Source: a virus
Lineage: Duplodnaviria > Heunggongvirae > Uroviricota > Caudoviricetes
DNA: 39,014 nucleotides
Strand: one strand, 5' to 3'
Virus record (IMG/VR): IMGVR_UViG_2703718823_000011
Shown: one piece after another, positions 6,091-39,014 of the stretch
Numbering within the stretch: the first letter of the stretch is position 1
Layout of the letters: the number at the start of each line of letters is the position of its first letter
Notes under the pieces: model-generated
The model's input: only the letters and a program-made list of their open reading frames with translations
Told to the model about the DNA's origin: nothing
Database searches by the model: none
Made by a program: the position numbers and the translations under genes

Positions 6091-6633
6091 ATGGCATATT
6101 TTTATTTCAAATTAGACCGTGTGCAGACAAATAAATATTTCACCAAATATCAACAGACTGTTTTACCGCTACGCAACAGTATTCTTCGGGCGTTACTGAA
6201 AAATACAGGCGCTGCCGGATTGCGCTTAAAGCCGTTTGCCATGGACGTAATCAGTGAGTTTTATTTTTCTGGTACTCTGCCTGCGGGCTGGCGTAAGCGC
6301 GATGATGTGGCTTTTATCGGGGACGGACCGTGCTTTATTGCCAGACCTGATGAGTCATGCCCTGAAGGACCGGCGATTGCCGCAATGATTGAAGCCGCTG
6401 AACGCGAGTTAAGAAAGCGTCCTGATTTCCTTGTCTGGCTCTGTGAAAAGCTGGGGGTAATGAGAATCCCCTCCATGTTTAACATGGACTCCTGGTGGAC
6501 CCCGTCGCTCTCCCGTGATGCCCTGTGCGTGGTGTTTAAAGTAGGCGCTTATGGCAGGGAAATAAAAGGGGGTATTCCTGAAGAATGCCAGGAGATTAAA
6601 CATTCTGAATATGTGGCGCTGACGGAGGAATAA
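6091..6633 (+). CDS. Hypothetical early accessory protein
   Basis: 180 aa ORF with AAGGAACAGG ribosome-binding site; no recognisable motif. Confidence 0.6.
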   Translation: MAYFYFKLDRVQTNKYFTKYQQTVLPLRNSILRALLKNTGAAGLRLKPFAMDVISEFYFSGTLPAGWRKRDDVAFIGDGPCFIARPDESCPEGPAIAAMIEAAERELRKRPDFLVWLCEKLGVMRIPSMFNMDSWWTPSLSRDALCVVFKVGAYGREIKGGIPEECQEIKHSEYVALTEE

Positions 6634-10168: not shown

Positions 10169-10591
10169 ATGGCTGAAACACAGATGAGCATGTTTGGTGA
10201 CAGCGAACAGCTGCACGCGCTGATTGACCGTCTGGATGACATTCCTGATGATGAGCTGAAAAAGAACTGGCCCGGCACGCTGCGGGACCTGGTTGATGTG
10301 ATCAGTGCTGAACTGCACCGTCAGGGGATTGAACCTGCTCAGGCAGGAATGCTTGCCCGTAAAGTTGCGGCCGCACAGGCCGGGTACATGGGCGGGCGTG
10401 GTTATTATCTCCCGGTCGGTGAATCCCTTTTCACCGAACTGCGCAATAATGAGATTTTTTCCCGCTGGAGCCAGGGCGAAAAAATTGAAACCCTGCGCCG
10501 CCATTACAGGATGTCAGAAACCCAGATTTATACCGTCATACGCGAACAGCGCCGTCTGCATCTGGCAAGAACGCAACCGCCACTTTTCTGA
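10169..10591 (+). CDS. Mor/C-family transcriptional activator
   Basis: 140 aa; GGAGG ribosome-binding site; C-terminal helix-turn-helix region (GGRGYYLP...ETLRRHYRMSETQIYTVIREQRR) resembles Mu Mor/C; last gene before the lysis cassette. Confidence 0.8.
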   Translation: MAETQMSMFGDSEQLHALIDRLDDIPDDELKKNWPGTLRDLVDVISAELHRQGIEPAQAGMLARKVAAAQAGYMGGRGYYLPVGESLFTELRNNEIFSRWSQGEKIETLRRHYRMSETQIYTVIREQRRLHLARTQPPLF

Positions 10592-10662
10592 TATTCCGCA
10601 AAGCCTGCCGCCTTTCCTTCACCGTTACGCTGACTCAGAGAACATCATGAGACAGCGTAACA

Positions 10663-11163
10663 ATGCCAAAACTCCCCGCACCACTGCGTAAAAAGCTGAT
10701 TGCCCTTGTTCTGGCCGGTGCCGGGACGTTCACGATTGCCACGCATTACACCGGTTACTGGGAAGGGAAAGAAAACTCCACGTATATCGATCCCACCGGT
10801 ACACCAACCATCTGTTACGGCCATACCGGCCCGGATGTGAAACCGGGTATGACCCTGACGGATGAAGAATGCCTGGAACTACTGGAAAAGGACATGAAAT
10901 GGGCCTTTGCGGCCATTGATCGGCGTGTTCAGGTGCCGCTTACCCGTGGTCAGACGGTGGCGCTGGCTTCGTGGATCTTCTGGGCTGGTGAAACGAACTT
11001 CCGCAACTCCACGCTTCTGCGCCTGATCAATGCCGGGCAGATGCCCGCGTCCTGTAAGCAGTACATCCGCTGGATTTATTCGAAGGGGGTGAAACTCCCC
11101 GGTCTTGAGGCCCGCCGTTCGGCGGATGAATGGTTATGTCGCTACGATTTGCCGAAAGTCTGA
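10663..11163 (+). CDS. SAR endolysin (lysozyme-like with N-terminal signal-arrest-release domain)
   Basis: 166 aa; Gly/Ala-rich weakly hydrophobic N-terminus LIALVLAGAGTFTIATHY, then a lysozyme motif (YxDPxGxPTICYGHTG) typical of phage T4/P22-type lysozymes. Confidence 0.85.
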   Translation: MPKLPAPLRKKLIALVLAGAGTFTIATHYTGYWEGKENSTYIDPTGTPTICYGHTGPDVKPGMTLTDEECLELLEKDMKWAFAAIDRRVQVPLTRGQTVALASWIFWAGETNFRNSTLLRLINAGQMPASCKQYIRWIYSKGVKLPGLEARRSADEWLCRYDLPKV

Positions 11164-31942: not shown

Positions 31943-32838
31943 TGTATTTTGTCGACAACAATTCAGGTGTGACCGATATGCCACCACTGGCCCCCTCTCA
32001 GGGCACGCAGGTTAAATGGTTTACTGAAGGTGACGGACGCAAAGGGATCAGCCATATCGGTCAGGACTGGCTGAACATCGTGCAGGCAGAGCTGCTTGCC
32101 ATTCTGACAGAAGGAAAGGTTCAGCCGGATAAGGCAAAACTGAACCAGCTGGTGACAGCCATTAAGGCAATCATTGCAGCAAACGCATACAGCCGGAAAA
32201 ACAACCTTAAGGAGATTGCGGATGCAGGTGCAGAAGCACAGGCTGCTGCCCGCCGTCATCTGGGGCTGGGAGGATTATCAGGAAAAGACAGTCTGGCTGC
32301 TGCTGATGTGGGAGCACTGGAGAAATCCCGGAATTTTGACGATGTACTGGATAAACCGACGGCTCGTCTGAATCTTGATGTTTACAGTAAGGGAGAAGGC
32401 GATGCGCGTTATCTGCGCAGGGACCAGAATGGCGCGGATATCCCGGACAAAGGAACCTTTATCAATAACCTCGGTTTACGGGAAACGGTAAATAAGGCGG
32501 CGAATGCCCTGCCATCGGACGGCACCGCTGCGGCAGCAAACAGACTCGCCACCCCAGTAAATATTAATGGTGTTCCTTTCGACGGGACGCGGGATATAAA
32601 CATTACGTCAGGAATGCCGGAATCAACGGCCAATCAGCGTTATGTTACAGGGGTAAGACTGGGAGCGCAGGCATTAAGCAGCGGACTGGAATATAATTAC
32701 TCCCTGTCATCAGGAAATGTGATTACCGGTTTTAAGACTGACGGAGACTGGGAAATGCGTGGTGGTGATGACCGTGTTTATTACAGACAGATACAATATT
32801 GTATTAATGGGAATTGGGTATCCGCTGCAAGTATTTAA
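31942..32838 (+). CDS. Tail fibre protein S: constant N-terminal part plus currently expressed variable C-terminus
   Basis: 298 aa; the crossover site lies at about codon 177; C-terminal part homologous to the inverted cassette at 33515-33896. Confidence 0.8.
   Translation: MYFVDNNSGVTDMPPLAPSQGTQVKWFTEGDGRKGISHIGQDWLNIVQAELLAILTEGKVQPDKAKLNQLVTAIKAIIAANAYSRKNNLKEIADAGAEAQAAARRHLGLGGLSGKDSLAAADVGALEKSRNFDDVLDKPTARLNLDVYSKGEGDARYLRRDQNGADIPDKGTFINNLGLRETVNKAANALPSDGTAAAANRLATPVNINGVPFDGTRDINITSGMPESTANQRYVTGVRLGAQALSSGLEYNYSLSSGNVITGFKTDGDWEMRGGDDRVYYRQIQYCINGNWVSAASI
32459..32484. other. Left recombination site of the invertible segment (gix-like)
   Basis: TTATCAATAACC-TC-GGTTTACGGGAA; near-match to the Mu gix site as recalled (TTATCCAAAACC-TC-GGTTTACAGGAA); inverted homology to 33884-33909. 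Confidence 0.7.
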
Positions 32839-32958
32839 TTAACGGCTCATGGCGTACGGCAGGCAGCGCCTGATATATGCGTTATCTCAGACAACCCCTG
32901 TCCGTATATAGCGATAGTATTATTCCTGTTTTTATCATTGATTCACATGGTGATGTTT

Positions 32959-33480
32959 ATGCAACTGATTAATGTTAAACGATATTACCCGGAAAACACC
33001 CTCTATGGTAATGATGTACAGTATTTTCAGAGTGAAGATGGTAAGGATTTCTACGAGTCCCTGCCATTATTCACCAAAAAATATAAACTTTGTATAACAC
33101 CTGACAGCGGCATTATCTGCTCAATATCACAGGACGCTTCGGCGCTGTATCCTGCGGGGTTCTCTGTGGTTGAAGTCGACGAACTCCCTGAAGGTGCTGA
33201 TATTTCGGGTAACTGGAAGTTTGATAATGGCGTGATCTCCCGTATTCCGGTTAACTACGCAAGAAAACTGGAAGCAATGCGCCAGTTATATCTTAATCAG
33301 GCATATGAAAAAATTAATGACTGGAGAACAGAATTACAGCTGGGCACCATCAGTGATGAAGACAGAGCCGCACTTACCCGATGGATGGCATACATCAGTC
33401 AGGTGAAAAAAATGGAACCATCCGCCATTAAAACTGAAGCTGAATTTGATGCCATTAAATGGCCCGAACAGCCTGAATAA
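32959..33480 (+). CDS. Tail fibre assembly protein (Mu U-like)
   Basis: Ends ...KWPEQPE like Mu U as recalled; AT-rich; start uncertain (track TTG 32938; ATGs at 32947, 32953, 32959). Confidence 0.75.
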   Translation: MQLINVKRYYPENTLYGNDVQYFQSEDGKDFYESLPLFTKKYKLCITPDSGIICSISQDASALYPAGFSVVEVDELPEGADISGNWKFDNGVISRIPVNYARKLEAMRQLYLNQAYEKINDWRTELQLGTISDEDRAALTRWMAYISQVKKMEPSAIKTEAEFDAIKWPEQPE

Positions 33481-33514: not shown

Positions 33515-33896
33515 TCAGACAGATGAAACTGTACGCCATGCATTACTGATATATATCTGCACAGGACGGAAATAAACCCCGCCAATGTTATCGGCAGAGT
33601 TTTTTCCTGTTTCCTGCACGTTAATACCGGAAAGCATACAACCGGAAGGCGCACTGTAATTCCATGACATTTCATTGCCTCCGGGTGAATGATAGCTCTG
33701 TGCTCCAAGCTGAACGTTCTGTACATACCGGCCATCTGCGGTTGACTGCGTCATTCCTGACGTGATGTTGATATCCTGCGTCCCGTCGAAAGGAACACCA
33801 TTAATATTTACTGGGGTGGCGAGTCTGTTTGCTGCCACGGCGGTTCCACCCGATGGCAGGGCATCAGCAGCCTTATTTACCGTTTCCCGTAAACCG
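33515..33896 (-). CDS. Alternative tail fibre C-terminal cassette (S'v), no own start; expressed only after inversion
   Basis: Minus-strand frame open from the right recombination site to the stop at 33515; encodes AANRLATPVNINGVPFDGTQDINITSGM... paralogous to the S C-terminus, then diverges. Confidence 0.7.
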
Positions 33897-33909
33897 AGGT
33901 TTCAGGGAT
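33884..33909. other. Right recombination site of the invertible segment (gix-like)
   Basis: TTCCCGTAAACC-GA-GGTTTCAGGGAT, inverted relative to the left site. Confidence 0.7.
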
Positions 33910-33963
33910 GCCGTATATCTGCTTTAAAAGGCCTTTCCACCTCTTTTTAAGGAAGGTAAATAC

Positions 33964-34524
33964 ATGCTGATTGGCTATATACGCGTATCAACAAATGACC
34001 AGAACACAGGTTTACAAAGAAATGCGCTGGAATGTGCAGGATGTGAGCAGATTTTTGAAGATAAAATGAGCGGAAAAACAACGCAGCGGCCGGGACTGAA
34101 GCGGGCACTGAAGAAACTAAAACCCGGTGACACGCTGATGGTCTGGAAACTGGACAGGCTGGGGCGCAGTATGCGCCACCTTGTTGCGCTGACAGATGAA
34201 TTACAGCAACAGGGGATAAATTTTCGTAGTCTTACTGACAGCATTGATACGTCAACCCCCATGGGGCGCTTCTTTTTTCACATAATGGGTGCGCTGGCAG
34301 AAATGGAGCGTGAATTGATTGTCGAACGGACACGGGCTGGTCTTACAGCTGCCCGTGAAAGGGGACGAACCGGCGGCAGACCCCGTCGTCTCACGCAGGA
34401 ACAATACGAGCAGGTCGGGCGTTTACTGGCCGGGGGGGTCAGCCGAAGACAGGTGGCACTTATTTTTGATATCGGCCTTTCAACCCTTTATCGTTATTAT
34501 CCTGCGAGCGTTTTGGAAAAATAA
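33964..34524 (+). CDS. gin: Serine DNA invertase Gin (Hin/Gin/Cin family)
   Basis: 186 aa; MLIGYIRVSTNDQN... with catalytic serine context, near-colinear with Gin as recalled; C-terminal helix-turn-helix. Confidence 0.95.
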   Translation: MLIGYIRVSTNDQNTGLQRNALECAGCEQIFEDKMSGKTTQRPGLKRALKKLKPGDTLMVWKLDRLGRSMRHLVALTDELQQQGINFRSLTDSIDTSTPMGRFFFHIMGALAEMERELIVERTRAGLTAARERGRTGGRPRRLTQEQYEQVGRLLAGGVSRRQVALIFDIGLSTLYRYYPASVLEK

Positions 34525-34614
34525 GACGCTCCCTTTGTTGGGCCTTTACTGAATTAACGCAAAATGGCGTTTATCGGTCTGTGGATATGATAATTCTGTT
34601 TATTCAGGAACAGG

Positions 34615-36696
34615 ATGAATATTATGACGTCCAAATGGGTTCAACTATCATCAATGCCCGGAAACTTTACCGTTAAAGTTTCCGGTGGTACAGCGGCATT
34701 TCTTGAGGCTCCCTTTCCTCCGGCTGAAACGAAAGGAGGTATGACATTTGCTGACTGTCTCATCAGTTTTAATACACGGGATTGCCTGTGGGTAAGGCCA
34801 GTATCCGGTGATCCGAACGTGGAAATTACCGGAGCGGGTATTGGTGCTGTCATTCCGTTAAGTGCTGATGTTGCCGGTACTACTGAACCGTCAGACTGGA
34901 ACAATGCGGAAACATACACTTCCTCAGCAGGAGATAAAGTTGCAGGTCAAACTCCGTCCTGGTATTACGTGGTTGTTATTGCTGGTCAGTCGAATGCATC
35001 GTCATTTGGTGAAGGTCTTCCTTTGCCTGATACCTATGATCGACCTGATCCACGTATTAAACAGCTGGCTCGCCGTAACACGGTTACACCTGGCGGGGTT
35101 GAATGCGCCTACAACGATATAATTCCGGCAGATCACTGTCTTCATGATGTGCTGGATATGAGTAACCATAATCATCCAAAAGCAGATCTTTCAAAAGGTC
35201 AGTATGGTTGTGTCGGCCAGGGTTTGCATATTGCAAAAAAACTCCTGCCCTTTATCCCGGAAGAGGCTGGTATCCTTCTGGTTCCCTGTGCCAGAGGAGG
35301 CTCTGCATTTACCGATGGTGCTGATGGTGAATTTACTGAAGCTTCCGGAGCAACATCTGCATCATCGCGCTGGGGAGTCAATAAACCTTTGTTCAGCGAT
35401 CTTGTTAACCGAACAAAAGCGGCTCTCAGCAGTAACCCCAGAAATATTCTCCTGTCCGTTGTCTGGATGCAGGGCGAGAATGATCTGAAAACAGGAAAAC
35501 ATGCTGAACATTCCGGTCTGTTTGTGACGATGGTCGAAACATTCAGGCGTGAACTTTCGGCTTTTTCTGCGCAATCTCCAGCCGGAGATATGGCTTCTGT
35601 ACCGTGGATCTGTGGTGATACGACGTATTACTGGAAAAATACATATCCAGAACAATACAAAGCTGTTTATGGCAAATATGCTAATGAAGCAAAGAACATT
35701 CACTTTGTTCCATTTGTTGTGGATGAAAATGGAAAAAATGTACCGACAAATAATCCAGATGAAGACCCGGATATTCCAGGTATTGGCTATTATGGTGCCA
35801 TAAGTCGCGATTCGACTAACTGGACATCAAACGACAGGGCAAGCCATTTCAGTTCATGGGCGCGCCGTGGAATTATTTCAGACCGTCTGGCAACAGCGAT
35901 TCTGACATTGTCAGGACAAAAATCTGCTTTCTTCCGCGGTGTAACGGCAACAGAACATTCTGATACCGGTAAGAGTGAGCCTGAACCCACCGGGGATGTG
36001 AAGGACGTGAGCGATCAGATGAAGATCATCGTTTCGTATACTGCAAACGCCCCGACAGAACCAATGAAAGATCAGGGGTGGAATGCGGCTTCCGGAAAAG
36101 CAACCTTTGTCACGGATGCTGCTGCAACAGGTGGTAACAAAGCGTTAAGGGTGAATAAAGCGCCTAACAGCATGGCCTCATGGAAAATGTATCATCCGAT
36201 CACAGCTGATAATGCCAGGGATTTGTTCGCCAGAGGTGGTGATATTTCCCTCCGTTTCAAAATTCCATCGGATGCGGGCATTGCGGAAAACCGGTATGGT
36301 GTTGGTATTTACTGGGCTGTAAGTAACTGGCCTGACGGTGACGGAAAAAATAACCTCATCGCATCATGTTTCCTGCAAACGGATTCAGCTAACCTGAATG
36401 TGATGTATCACAAAGGGAGCGGAAGTCAACAGATAGGATCGTATGGTGTCTTTGATCATGAATGGCATACGCTCTCGTTACGGTTTGCAGGTGGTAATAG
36501 CATGAGTGTTACCCCAGTTCTGGACGGGAAAGATGGTGAACCATTTGAACTTGTGAAGTGGGTGAATGCCGGGTTCACGGTGGATCAACTGACACTGACC
36601 GATATTACCGGCAATGCAGCCACTTACCCGATGTTGTTTGACACAATTAAAGTGCAGGTTAACGATGCGGTCTCTCCGTCTAATGTGAATAAATGA
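34615..36696 (+). CDS. SASA/SGNH-type carbohydrate O-acetylesterase with lectin-like C-terminal domain (prophage cargo; NanS-p-like candidate)
   Basis: 693 aa; GQSN nucleophile motif (about 34984-34995), ...CARGGSAF..., WMQGENDL block (about 35467-35487); C-terminal ~180 aa resembles a concanavalin/LamG-type jelly roll; own ribosome-binding site; AT-richer than the structural genes. Confidence 0.8.
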   Translation: MNIMTSKWVQLSSMPGNFTVKVSGGTAAFLEAPFPPAETKGGMTFADCLISFNTRDCLWVRPVSGDPNVEITGAGIGAVIPLSADVAGTTEPSDWNNAETYTSSAGDKVAGQTPSWYYVVVIAGQSNASSFGEGLPLPDTYDRPDPRIKQLARRNTVTPGGVECAYNDIIPADHCLHDVLDMSNHNHPKADLSKGQYGCVGQGLHIAKKLLPFIPEEAGILLVPCARGGSAFTDGADGEFTEASGATSASSRWGVNKPLFSDLVNRTKAALSSNPRNILLSVVWMQGENDLKTGKHAEHSGLFVTMVETFRRELSAFSAQSPAGDMASVPWICGDTTYYWKNTYPEQYKAVYGKYANEAKNIHFVPFVVDENGKNVPTNNPDEDPDIPGIGYYGAISRDSTNWTSNDRASHFSSWARRGIISDRLATAILTLSGQKSAFFRGVTATEHSDTGKSEPEPTGDVKDVSDQMKIIVSYTANAPTEPMKDQGWNAASGKATFVTDAAATGGNKALRVNKAPNSMASWKMYHPITADNARDLFARGGDISLRFKIPSDAGIAENRYGVGIYWAVSNWPDGDGKNNLIASCFLQTDSANLNVMYHKGSGSQQIGSYGVFDHEWHTLSLRFAGGNSMSVTPVLDGKDGEPFELVKWVNAGFTVDQLTLTDITGNAATYPMLFDTIKVQVNDAVSPSNVNK

Positions 36697-36731
36697 CGGG
36701 TAATTCATTTTATTTAAAATGGTGAGTGATT

Positions 36732-36911
36732 ATGCCAATACTACATACATTTATGCTTTATTTTTGCACGTGTGTGTGTCTACTTTATCTCCTCAGCGGA
36801 GGTTACAAAATTATCCGAAATTATTTTCGAAATAAAATTGATGCAGCCGCAGAGGAAAAGATAAAAAGCGGTGCTGTAATGCCGCAGCCGAAAGACTCCG
36901 GTCAGATTTAA
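36732..36911 (+). CDS. Small hydrophobic protein (cargo island)
   Basis: About 59 aa from ATG 36732 (track GTG 36726); N-terminal hydrophobic segment PILHTFMLYFCTCVCLLYLL. Confidence 0.45.
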   Translation: MPILHTFMLYFCTCVCLLYLLSGGYKIIRNYFRNKIDAAAEEKIKSGAVMPQPKDSGQI

Positions 36912-36946
36912 TTTTTTGTGAACCAGAAAAGGAAAGGAGAATATTC

Positions 36947-37192
36947 ATGCCAGAGATTAAAGGCACGGTTACTGAAGAGCTTGTCAAACAGGCACTTTAT
37001 TCTGAAGAAGTGAACCGCGTGCTGAAGGCGCAGGTTCGCAAGGATTTTGAGGCACAAATCGACGCATATGTTGATGAAGTGCTGGCCCGAATGGTTGGCC
37101 ATTCTCCGGCTGAAAACAGCACGGAGAATGAGCCTCAGCCCGTAGAGCAACCAGAGCCGGTTCAGCCCGGAACTGACAGTGCCATGATGTAA
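36947..37192 (+). CDS. Small acidic hypothetical protein (cargo island)
   Basis: 81 aa; strong ribosome-binding site AAAGGAAAGGAGA. Confidence 0.5.
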   Translation: MPEIKGTVTEELVKQALYSEEVNRVLKAQVRKDFEAQIDAYVDEVLARMVGHSPAENSTENEPQPVEQPEPVQPGTDSAMM

Positions 37193-37266
37193 CAATACAA
37201 ACCGACAGCTTCTCCTGTCGGTTTGATTTTCATGGGCGATGTATATACCAGTCAGAGGAAATAATC

Positions 37267-37467
37267 ATGGACAAGAACAAAAAGCAGCCCGATACCAAAG
37301 GTCTGGAAATATTAAGCGCAGAAATTATCAATGCGCTACGTTCAGGACTTGATGAAAATACATTACAGGATCGAAACTTCACCACTGCAATGTGGATAGC
37401 GATGCAGATCCTGTGTACCCCAAGATGCGCTATTTTTGCGGTTCGTGAGGGTCAGTTGACTCGCTGA
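37267..37467 (+). CDS. Small hypothetical protein (cargo island)
   Basis: 66 aa; ribosome-binding site GAGGAAATAATC-ATG. Confidence 0.45.
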   Translation: MDKNKKQPDTKGLEILSAEIINALRSGLDENTLQDRNFTTAMWIAMQILCTPRCAIFAVREGQLTR

Positions 37468-37636
37468 TTGCCCGAATTACATCAGAAAAGCACGCGTTCC
37501 ATAATTGCATAGCTGATGAATCACCAGCTGTATGAAAAGAGGTAAAGACACAACTGGTGGATGTCATTGCTGCAATTGTGATATCAGCTGCAATTCGCGC
37601 AGCCTGTAACTTTTGGTCGGTGGTCAGTTTATCCAT
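37430..37636 (-). CDS. Small hypothetical protein, convergent with and overlapping 37267-37467
   Basis: About 68 aa from ATG at 37634-37636 (MDKLTTDQ...) with AGGAG 4 nt upstream; track ORF extends to 37660; 3' ends overlap by 38 bp. Confidence 0.4.
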   Translation of the reverse strand: MDKLTTDQKLQAARIAADITIAAMTSTSCVFTSFHTAGDSSAMQLWNACFSDVIRAISESTDPHEPQK

Positions 37637-37710
37637 TTTCTCCTGCCTGAACAGATGCATCTCTGCTTTACAGGAGGCCGGGGAATATCATAGGATACAC
37701 CACGAGCTCA

Positions 37711-37870
37711 GAGTGAAGCATTGATGCAGTTTTTTACAGATTGACCCAGAATAGTTCGCGCTATCTGAGTCGCCATTTATGTAGTCCCGAAGTAAAGCAT
37801 TGATGCAAACTTGTCTAAATCGGCCCAGCATAGTTCCAGCTATGCTGGGTTTCCCTTTTATGTAGTATCC
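37711..37870. repeat. Tandem direct repeat, 2 x ~80 bp, about 70 percent identical
   Basis: Copy 1 37711-37790, copy 2 37791-37870; shared blocks AAGCATTGATGCA, CCCAG.ATAGTTC, TTTATGTAGT. Confidence 0.6.
37824..37865 (+). terminator. Terminator-like hairpin within repeat copy 2
   Basis: CCCAGCATAG-ttccag-CTATGCTGGG (perfect 10 bp stem) followed by TTTCCCTTTTATG; the equivalent in copy 1 is degenerate. Confidence 0.5.
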
Positions 37871-37911
37871 TGTTGATTTGAAACATACTACATATACGCG
37901 CGATCCTACCT

Positions 37912-37951
37912 TCACTGGATAAAAAGTCAATAAAATGATCATTTTATGATC
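37912..37951. promoter_or_regulatory. Cluster of three GATC (Dam) sites upstream of com/mom
   Basis: GATC at 37912, 37937 and 37948 within 40 bp; two further GATC at 38059 and 38072. Confidence 0.45.
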
Positions 37952-38054
37952 GTTTTCACCGCCTAACTCTTCGTTTTCTTTAAGTAAATAATCACCGCCC
38001 TGAATCATTGTTGATGACTTTTCAATCTATTTGTTGTATCAATTAAACAAATCG

Positions 38055-38079
38055 AATCGATCGTTTTTGTCGATCGATT
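38055..38079. promoter_or_regulatory. Perfect 9 bp inverted repeat AATCGATCG-N7-CGATCGATT upstream of com
   Basis: Arms at 38055-38063 and 38071-38079, each containing a GATC; 44 bp upstream of the com ATG. Confidence 0.4.
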
Positions 38080-38122
38080 GCATGAGAAAGGCATCAACAA
38101 CAAAGCAGGAGGTTATGCGGCC

Positions 38123-38323
38123 ATGTATCGAAACATACGGTGCCGACACTGCAATAAGCTACTGGCACGGGCCAGTTTCAGTTATCTGGAAGTAAAATGT
38201 CCGCGCTGTAAAACCCTCAATCAAATCACATCTCCGAGCGCCACAGAGCACCCCACATACACAAGGAAATCCTGTCGTGGGGAACAGAAAGCAAGTCACA
38301 TCCCGTATCATCAGCACGCCTGA
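38123..38323 (+). CDS. com: Com zinc-finger translational activator of mom
   Basis: [30 protein letters not shown]... matches Mu Com (M.SIRC.NCNKLL...SF...E.RCPRCK); AGGAGG upstream; track start 38078 is TTG. Confidence 0.85.
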
Positions 38324-39014
38324 ACTTATTCGCTATAACGACAATATCGTTGGTTATGGTTCCCGTGAGTTGCGGGTTGAGACAATAAGTTGCTGGCTGG
38401 CCAGACTGGTTATCGTCAATAAACATTACAGCCACCGTTTCGTAAATAACTCCTACCTTCATCTGGGCATATTTTCAGAACGGGAACTTGTTGGCGTAAT
38501 GCAATGGGGTTACGCCCTTAACCCAAACAGTGGTGCACGCGTCGTAACGGGTACGCAGAACCGAGAATATATGGAGCTGAACCGGCTATGGATGCATGAC
38601 TGTATGCCGAGAAATTCCGAATCAAGGGCAATCAGTTACGCGCTCAAGCTAATCAGGCAGCTTTATCCGCAGGTACAGTGGGTTCAGTCGTTTGCAGATG
38701 AGCGTTGTGGCTGTCTTGGTGTCGTGTATCAGGCAAGCAATTTTGATTATGTAGGCAGCCATGAAACAATATTCTATGAACTTGATGGCGAGTGGTATCA
38801 CGAGATTTGCAGGAATGCCATTAAACGAGGCGGACAACGAGGTGAACATCTGAGGGCTAATATCGACAGAGCCAGTGTGCATAAGTTCCGACAGTTTCGT
38901 TACATCCGGTTTCTGAACAAGAGGGCCAGAAAACGCCTCAACACAAAGCTATTCAAAGTCCAGCCTTACCCAAAACCACAAACAGTTAAAACTGGTTTGA
39001 AAGAGAGTGAATGA
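38277..39014 (+). CDS. mom: Mom-like DNA modification protein
   Basis: 245 aa ORF starting (GTG) inside the 3' end of com as in Mu com/mom; size close to Mu Mom (about 231 aa); Dam-site cluster upstream; stop is the last codon of the window. Confidence 0.7.

Follow-up and report, generated by a model that had tools for sequence, protein, structure and literature searches.

A predicted NanS-p-type sialate O-acetylesterase cassette between gin and com/mom in Mu-like prophages of Escherichia coli and Shigella

The DNA analysed here (IMG/VR record IMGVR_UViG_2703718823_000011; 39,014 nucleotides, hereafter the window) is an almost complete Mu-like prophage of the Escherichia coli/Shigella family, O157 Sp18 type. 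This work concerns the genes that separate gin, which encodes the G-segment invertase (33964-34524, + strand; Pfam Resolvase 7e-51 and HTH_7), from the com/mom genes at the right end. From the gin stop to the com start there are 3,598 bp with six open reading frames (ORFs). An esterase ORF with SASA and DUF6645 domains comes first (+ strand; 34615-36696 for 693 amino acids, or 34624-36696 for 690). It is followed on the same strand by a small single-pass membrane protein of 59 amino acids (36732-36911, its ORF opening with GTG at 36726; Pfam DUF1378 2.2e-23, phrog_494, RefSeq WP_001536757), a small acidic protein of 81 amino acids (36947-37192; Pfam DUF826 2.9e-15, phrog_311) and orf66, a small conserved protein (37267-37467). 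Two genes on the minus strand complete the set, orf68 (37430-37636; the full ORF reaches 37660 and encodes 76 amino acids, orf76) and orf106 (37688-38008, 106 amino acids; phrog_26524 2.5e-34), which runs leftward, divergent from com, and starts 114 bp from it. gin forms the left boundary of the module. The right boundary is the mom regulatory region, with clustered GATC sites and the com ribosome-binding site (38040-38122, + strand), which precedes com (38123-38323, +; Pfam Zn_ribbon_Com 3.3e-12, RefSeq) and mom (38277-39014, +; Pfam Mom 3.2e-77, RefSeq). Pfam profile searches of the encoded proteins were read down to E 0.1. RefSeq annotates all of these genes, the esterase as “DUF6645 domain-containing protein” or “sialate O-acetylesterase”. 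An Rfam scan of 33800-39014 gave two sub-threshold chance snoRNA matches and nothing more.

The right end of Mu runs G segment, gin, Pmom, com, mom. As the initial annotation stated, com/mom directly follow gin there, across a gap of 95 bp that holds Pmom. The clustered GATC sites upstream of com are kept in the window, and unlike Mu the window carries 3.5 kb with six ORFs separating gin from the mom regulatory region. At 38059-38077, three GATC sites and then a GATT align with the region upstream of Mu Pmom and with Edwardsiella, Pantoea and other loci. Since this cluster still lies directly upstream of com, the module sits between gin and the mom control region. The initial annotation had described about 3.2 kb of extra DNA ending at 37710; the extra DNA is there, and its end lies further right, at about 38008-38040. 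The same annotation called the island AT-richer, which is correct against the phage core (45-46% GC against 54.7% for bases 1-31400) and not against its immediate flanks, which are similar (G region 48%, gin 50.6%, com-mom 47%). Its four small ORFs were found where it had placed them, including the convergent overlapping pair at 37267-37467 (+) and 37430-37660 (-), which share 38 nt; the further leftward ORF at 37688-38008 had been overlooked.

Relative to their Mu counterparts, gin, com and mom are 75%, 46% and 79% identical. The esterase is absent from five Mu-like prophages in other genera, where com/mom come straight after gin or a tail-fibre assembly gene (Edwardsiella L008, Pantoea L023, Apirhabdus L021, and Enterobacteriaceae L009 and L011). 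The extra DNA reported at the gin-mom junction is thus real with respect to both Mu and these five prophages.

The suggestion of a 693-amino acid carbohydrate esterase held up. Profile searches match the product to Pfam SASA (3.9e-12), DUF6645 (1.5e-32) and phrog_143 (1.6e-260). Residues 113-431 match E. coli NanS (PDB 3PT5, E 7.8e-114) and residues 472-683 match the lectin-like C-terminal domain of phi24B NanS-p (PDB 6YP6, E 2.6e-51). Ser126 of a GQSN motif and His411 of a SHFSS motif are invariant in 17 aligned alleles. By homology the ORF is identified as a NanS-p-type sialate O-acetylesterase, with a NanS-like SGNH catalytic domain and a jelly-roll lectin-like C-terminal domain. The upstream ATG (34615) is CTG in the O157 allele and the homologue clusters begin MTSKW or MSDSQW; the start is probably the ATG at 34624 (MTSKW), giving 690 amino acids. 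An AlphaFold2 (AF2) model of the whole esterase from the single sequence had a mean predicted local distance difference test score (pLDDT) of 35 and was not used. By analogy with its relatives, the enzyme would strip 9-O-acetyl groups from the sialic acids of mucin glycans. Lambdoid NanS-p alleles let bacteria grow on Neu5,9Ac2 and remove O-acetyl groups from mucin glycans; these effects have been read as an advantage to the lysogen (PMC8065619). The chromosomal NanS of E. coli (YjhS, 3PT5) shares the catalytic domain, the GQSN serine and the SHFSS histidine, but differs in being a single-domain protein of about 330 amino acids encoded among the host sialic-acid utilisation genes; it has neither N- nor C-terminal extra domain and no DUF1378/DUF826 partners.

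The closest comparison is with the NanS-p proteins of lambdoid and Shiga toxin (Stx) phages (933W z1466, phi24B vb_24B_21/gp84), whose SASA/SGNH catalytic domain is 66-72% identical. They also share with the window protein the DUF6645 lectin-like domain, the lack of a signal peptide, DUF1378 and DUF826 genes after the esterase gene, carriage by a phage and, probably, late expression. They differ at the N-terminus, where lambdoid NanS-p has DUF1737 and the window protein is predicted to have an unrelated, cupin-like domain of about 75 residues in its place (34624-34854, followed by a disordered linker to about 34950). DUF1737 (PF08410) was not found in the esterase by the Pfam search, homologues that cover the esterase's N-terminus carry no PF08410 whereas lambdoid homologues do, and a profile-profile comparison (hhalign) of the domain with DUF1737 gave a probability of 0.3%. 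AF2 run on a 7-sequence alignment predicts residues 1-70 as a confident all-beta domain (pLDDT 78-91), then a disordered linker. Fold searches with the domain returned generic cupin matches only, and its best matches in a viral fold library are small uncharacterised phage proteins.

This N-terminal domain appears to be very rare, and at the level of sequence is essentially never seen apart from SASA esterases. Searched exhaustively with HMMER, 1.8 billion representative proteins gave five matches. The two with enough downstream sequence, P0004 and P0007, run into the start of a SASA esterase, and one of them is 28% identical. The remaining three are two short N-terminal fragments and a weak match to an unrelated repeat protein of 979 amino acids. 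A word-index homologue search with the domain found three partial E. coli entries only. Two types of the domain, A and B, occur in the Mu-like slot only, and DUF1737 was seen only in lambdoid contexts (four inspected). The type A domain is 97-98% identical to that of four alleles and 80% identical to that of the divergent allele P0045; types A and B are 59-60% identical to each other, and type B alleles belong to a sister Mu-like lineage, where they fill the same slot.

The initial annotation saw no recognisable function in the small ORFs. That view does not hold for two of the four, which belong to the DUF1378 and DUF826 families; it stands for orf66 and orf68, which have no family match other than a weak one of orf68 to phrog_25148 (1.4e-4). 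The product of ORF 36726-36911 is hydrophobic, with an isoelectric point (pI) of 8.9, and the DUF826 protein is acidic (pI 4.4); the DUF826 gene differs from that of the sister lineage by 13-14 synonymous and 5 nonsynonymous substitutions. Both families occur in the same order in lambdoid phages, which makes these two small proteins conserved partners of NanS-p. Ss-VASD, PhiR12_5 and BP-4795 show the lambdoid/Stx order Q-(stx)-esterase-DUF1378-DUF826-holin, and the same-strand esterase, DUF1378, DUF826 order of the window is that of Ss-VASD and PhiR12_5. Phage records hold DUF1378 in 307 cases and the esterase in 347, with DUF1378 directly downstream of NanS-p. A 2023 survey of Stx2a phages likewise placed DUF826 and DUF1378 genes between nanS-p and S (PMC10462455). 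In the window these two genes are far from lys (near 10663), from which we infer that they move as companions of the esterase, not of the lysis cassette.

The lambdoid location itself had been misplaced. NanS-p genes were taken to lie after the tail-fibre genes, but they open the late operon, with Q/PR'/stx before them and the holin gene after. Judged from gene order, what lambdoid and Mu-like phages share is the cassette, not a positional slot. The carrier in the window is a transposable Mu-like myovirus with the gene between gin and com/mom and, unlike lambdoid NanS-p in the PR' operon, the cassette here apparently has its own C-type promoter and its own terminator.

A putative C-dependent late promoter of the esterase lies at 34550-34591 (+ strand) and consists of the box TGAATTAACGCAAAA (34550-34564), 22 nt and a -10 element, TATGAT (34586-34591). 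Related sites lie upstream of lys (10589-10631; TGATATTCCGCAAAG, 23 nt, TACGCT) and upstream of an I-like protease gene (18513-18555; TGAAATCCCGCAAAA, 23 nt, TATGCT). The pattern CGCAAA-N21-24-TAYGMT occurs three times in the window against 0.12 expected, only at the esterase, lys (10597) and the I-like gene (18521). The last two sites have the motif TGAWATYCCGCAAAR-N23-TAYGCT in common, which is probably the late-promoter signature of the window phage. Their positions correspond to the annotated C-dependent promoters Plys and PI of Mu, upstream of lys and I, and the Plys sequence is visibly homologous. In the type B lineage the gin-esterase spacer is otherwise divergent and keeps TGAATTTCCGCAAAA, 22 nt and TATGCT; TGAATTTCCGCAAAA has one mismatch to the pattern built from the lys and I sites alone. 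A scan for the sigma-70 consensus gave seven matches in 5.2 kb against 8.2 expected, with no gin-esterase promoter above chance. A dyad upstream of the esterase, AACGC-N6-GCGTT, was considered as an activator site and dropped (24 matches against 22 expected).

Downstream of DUF826, a hairpin that is terminator-like on both strands (37198-37225; -17 kcal/mol, z -4.0) would end the unit. None of 200 shuffles was as stable, a T-rich run comes after it, and it is kept in the sister lineages. On the strength of the shared promoter motif upstream and this hairpin after DUF826, the esterase, DUF1378 and DUF826 genes can be read as a late transcription unit. Lambdoid nanS-p is expressed late, from PR', and belongs to the genes that respond most strongly when the prophage is induced (PMC8065619). 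The lack of a signal peptide on the window esterase implies release by lysis or carriage on the virion.

The module is a fixed part of its lineage. Of 5,426 complete E. coli genomes, 204 have gin 3' end, intergenic region and esterase N-terminus in one contiguous stretch at 95% identity or more, and the gin 3' end with the intergenic region is at least 96.5% conserved across these 204. In none of the 5,426 does the gin of the window lineage adjoin its com/mom. The O157:H7 Sp18-type prophages have the same slot; since 2009 Sp18 has been considered an intact prophage of the Mu-like kind (PMC2669165). The prophages lie at unrelated chromosomal sites, as expected from transposition, and the carriers are mostly gut strains or E. 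coli that make Shiga toxin (STEC). The region studied is 100% identical to E. coli STEC2018-607, where the prophage interrupts bcsA; the exact 5.1-kb configuration of the window was found in four of the 5,426 genomes. The junction had been suggested to be a variable cargo slot shared with other phages. Within the lineage it is no free-for-all: the architecture is fixed in about 200 E. coli genomes and alleles are swapped inside it. A block kept at this junction throughout the Mu-like phages would have told against the initial annotation, and the result goes halfway there: the block is conserved in the Sp18-type lineage, and relative to Mu it is an insertion.

The only entries of the phage collection with near-identical DNA are LC727881.1 (an Stx2c-converting phage) and LC727895.1 (an Stx1a-converting phage), both annotated with an inserted Mu-like phage, that is, a Mu-like prophage transposed into an Stx prophage. 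In E. coli HCP4S3_I4 (L030 435-1132), IS1A occupies the expected place of gin directly upstream of an esterase gene with a frameshift; this copy of the module is decaying.

Identity within the slot is strongly mosaic. At the nucleotide level, with the O157 allele as reference, gin, the intergenic region and the esterase N-terminus (33900-34900) are 94-99% identical, the remaining esterase and the start of DUF1378 (34900-36800) 35-75%, and the end of DUF1378 with DUF826 (36800-37200) 92-100%. The variable tail (37200-37900) is mostly non-homologous, and the start of orf106, com and mom (37900-39014) are 96-100% identical. Compared per domain across 16 alleles, the catalytic domain is 66-72% identical to that of each other allele, Mu-type and lambdoid alike, and the lectin domain 35-54%. 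Alleles whose other parts are 35-69% identical share an N-terminal domain conserved to 98%. The Sp18-type prophage of O157:H7 Sakai has the same backbone and the same slot architecture (gin 98%, esterase N-terminal domain 97-98%, DUF826 96%, com 100%, mom 97.5%), but its esterase allele differs (catalytic domain 69%, lectin domain 48%), its DUF1378 is 81% identical and the orf66/orf68 segment is replaced by one with a Zn-ribbon ORF of 56 amino acids. Inside the slot the esterase N-terminal domain and DUF826 remain constant, and it is the catalytic and lectin portions and the small-gene tail that recombination exchanges between prophages. Outside the slot, the G region is also far from the O157 variant (tail-fibre protein 64% identical, assembly protein 63%), and the alternative tail-fibre end of the G segment, S' (32616-33002, L001 2616-3002, and 33515-33838), is an incomplete pseudogene in RefSeq.

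Beyond the hairpin at 37198-37225, patterns of substitution indicate that orf66 and orf68 are probably real genes. Against the sister lineages, orf66 has 8-9 synonymous and 2 nonsynonymous changes in frame (0-2 against 8-10 in the other frames), and orf68 has 12 and 6 (2-3 against 16 out of frame). The likely start of orf68 is the ATG at 37636, with AGGAG in front of it, and the gene is called with 68 amino acids in L031-33. The exact orf66 protein is indexed in 1,874 collection blocks and lies in this slot at all eight places shown (27 contigs read), where its neighbours are esterase alleles of 669, 679 or 693 amino acids and Mom or a C5 methylase. The tail variant with orf66 and orf68 was found in 15 of the 5,426 complete genomes. 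In AST198 orf68 is deleted and most of the segment lost; O157-type prophages have the Zn-ribbon ORF instead. In the O157 Sp18-type variant (L002 ~6340-6520, minus strand) this ORF (MDKEPVCPACK...CPACSP) has its own AAGGAG, and database proteins of 153-154 amino acids appear to be read-through fusions of it with the leftward ORF. Neither orf66 nor orf68 has a match in Pfam, NCBIfam, PDB sequences or 50,697 phage genomes (tblastn), and none of the six proteins matched a PADLOC defence model (E up to 0.1).

The leftward ORF, orf106, looks decayed or variable by its sequence. It matches phrog_26524 over residues 1-77 only, and RefSeq treats 37630-38008 (-) as a frameshifted pseudogene. Its homologues are 135-154 amino acids long, with C-terminal halves that differ by frameshifts, and the variants differ by indels. 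It contains a 79-bp tandem duplication (37712-37764 / 37791-37843, 75% identity), of which O157-type prophages have one copy. The second copy forms a strong terminator-like hairpin on the + strand (37822-37851; -21 kcal/mol, z -5.3). This hairpin lies shortly before the mom control region and could shield mom from transcription entering from upstream.

Within that control region, an inverted repeat of 23 nt (37999-38021 / 38087-38109, 78% complementary) flanks the GATC cluster, with one arm over the beginning of the leftward ORF and the other over the ribosome-binding site of com. A regulator may bind there, or the repeat may be what is left of divergent promoters. We also considered ATCAATTAA, upstream of com, as a relic of the 3' end of Mu gin; Gin C-termini vary among Mu-like phages, so this reading is not interpretable. 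In a sister lineage com is followed by a C5 DNA cytosine methyltransferase of 350 amino acids (PF00145) instead of mom, overlapping the 3' end of com as mom does (L029 5458-6664 in E. coli AST198, L031 11792-12844, L035 5859-7065). An anti-restriction modification enzyme appears to have been swapped under Com control.

We propose that the locus is a lineage-fixed accessory module of E. coli/Shigella Mu-like transposable prophages, a self-contained late unit inserted between gin and the mom regulatory region. We consider this the probable explanation; gene identities, domain architecture, distribution and mosaic pattern are shown by the analysis, and late expression, enzymatic specificity and the route of release are what we infer. 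A phage late promoter would drive the NanS-p-type esterase, DUF1378 and DUF826 up to an intrinsic terminator. The esterase would be made in lytic growth and, having no signal peptide, would enter the gut mucus as free enzyme set loose by lysis or else on the particles. Several points weigh against this proposal. The promoter pattern was partly defined post hoc, after the three sites had been seen; the 15-nt box alone is barely enriched in the window (12 matches against 6.9 expected, at 3 mismatches); and a box matching the lys/I/esterase motif was not found for Pmom or PP of the window phage. Nothing but a weak hairpin over the gin stop, a possible gin terminator (34506-34531, + strand; -14.5 kcal/mol, z -2.0, from the terminator scan), stands between gin read-through and the esterase. 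Sp18 is not inducible by mitomycin (PMC2669165). Phage 434 carries the esterase without DUF1378 and DUF826, and substrate specificity is predicted from the 66-72% identity of the catalytic domain to characterised relatives.

The enzyme may instead be a component of the virion, its N-terminal domain attaching it to the Mu-like particle, at the capsid or elsewhere. Cryo-electron microscopy and proteomics have shown that in phi24B the homologue, gp84, decorates the capsid, to which its N-terminal DUF1737 anchors it (bioRxiv 10.64898/2026.04.10.717836). It is only this domain that is replaced in the window protein, by one that tracks phage type, and a domain 98% conserved while the rest is swapped is the pattern of the anchor domains of tail fibres and tailspikes. 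The late-promoter signature upstream of the gene, the near-absence of the domain apart from SASA esterases and its fold matches to small phage proteins point the same way. Its lack of any similarity to DUF1737 does not, nor does the position of the cassette away from the head and tail gene clusters, and the conserved N-terminal stretch may be a mere homologous flank for recombination. Because N-terminal type follows phage type and the domain stays constant while the rest of the protein is exchanged, a role as particle adaptor fits; we regard that role as a tentative assignment, and virion attachment as possible but on balance unlikely. Attachment would imply a phage-centred function such as mucus adherence or penetration, or receptor unmasking, and refines the late-module proposal rather than excluding it. 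More speculative, and a little harder to credit, is the broader idea that the esterase is a portable module for display on virions, with one catalytic and lectin unit, adaptors specific to each morphotype at the N-terminus (DUF1737 for lambdoid capsids, the cupin-like domain for Mu-like myovirus particles), a late promoter native to each phage, and DUF1378 and DUF826 as obligatory helpers for assembly, processing or release.

A benefit to the lysogen has been the usual reading of lambdoid NanS-p, and the Mu-like esterase might likewise be a lysogenic-conversion gene, made in lysogens from a constitutive promoter or by gin read-through, so that the host grows on 9-O-acetylated sialic acids. gin is expressed in Mu lysogens, the hairpin at its stop is weak, lambdoid alleles do support growth on Neu5,9Ac2 with de-O-acetylation of mucin, and gut and STEC strains predominate among carriers. 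An intact lysogen, however, would keep an esterase without a signal peptide in its cytoplasm, away from the substrate. The sigma-70 scan offers no promoter for such expression, the motif that does lie upstream of the esterase matches phage late promoters, and the lambdoid homologues are late genes; we judge expression in lysogens to be unlikely. Less likely still is that the key part of the locus is its tail (orf66, orf68 and the leftward ORF), as a variable exclusion, toxin-antitoxin-like or anti-defence locus beside mom. The tail is the most variable part of the slot, its two small genes show an excess of synonymous changes, and it adjoins the anti-restriction functions of com/mom or com/C5 methylase. 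Yet the convergent layout of orf66 and orf68, with overlapping 3' ends, is not that of a type II toxin-antitoxin pair, the family and defence searches gave a single weak PHROG match, the variants examined have frameshifts or many indels in the leftward ORF, and the esterase cassette accounts for two of the four small ORFs. The least credible account, in our view a very improbable one, takes the cassette for an ancestral feature of enterobacterial Mu-like phages that Mu and others have lost. Its fixation in both the Sp18-type and the sister C5-methylase lineages and the deep divergence of alleles (59% between N-terminal types A and B) would suit an old resident. Against this, gin or the tail-fibre assembly gene abuts com/mom in Mu and in the Edwardsiella, Pantoea, Apirhabdus and two Enterobacteriaceae prophages, the closest relatives of the cassette are in lambdoid phages of the same hosts, and its GC content differs from that of the phage core.

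The preferred explanation, a lineage-fixed late module, involves a known three-gene cassette and no new system. What is new is the replaced N-terminal domain, the apparent C-type late promoter and the presence of the cassette in a transposable phage. NanS-p has been discussed almost only as cargo of Stx phages that feeds STEC on mucin sialic acids; surveys cover lambdoid and Stx phages only, taking DUF1737 as the N-terminal domain, and no paper in the literature searched combined “nanS-p” with “Mu-like”. About 4% of complete E. coli genomes, O157:H7 among them, have a transposable Mu-like prophage of which this three-gene cassette is a fixed part. Any tally of nanS-p alleles in a STEC genome should take in its Mu-like prophages, and DUF1378 and DUF826 would be counted as companions of the esterase rather than of the lysis genes. 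The replaced anchor domain and the apparent late promoter of its own allow a direct test of whether the esterase serves the particle or the lysogen, a question that the phi24B structure of 2026 raised. Were portable display on virions to prove true, the editing of mucus glycans by virions would be a convergent, selected trait of temperate phages of the gut and not a nutritional gift to the lysogen.

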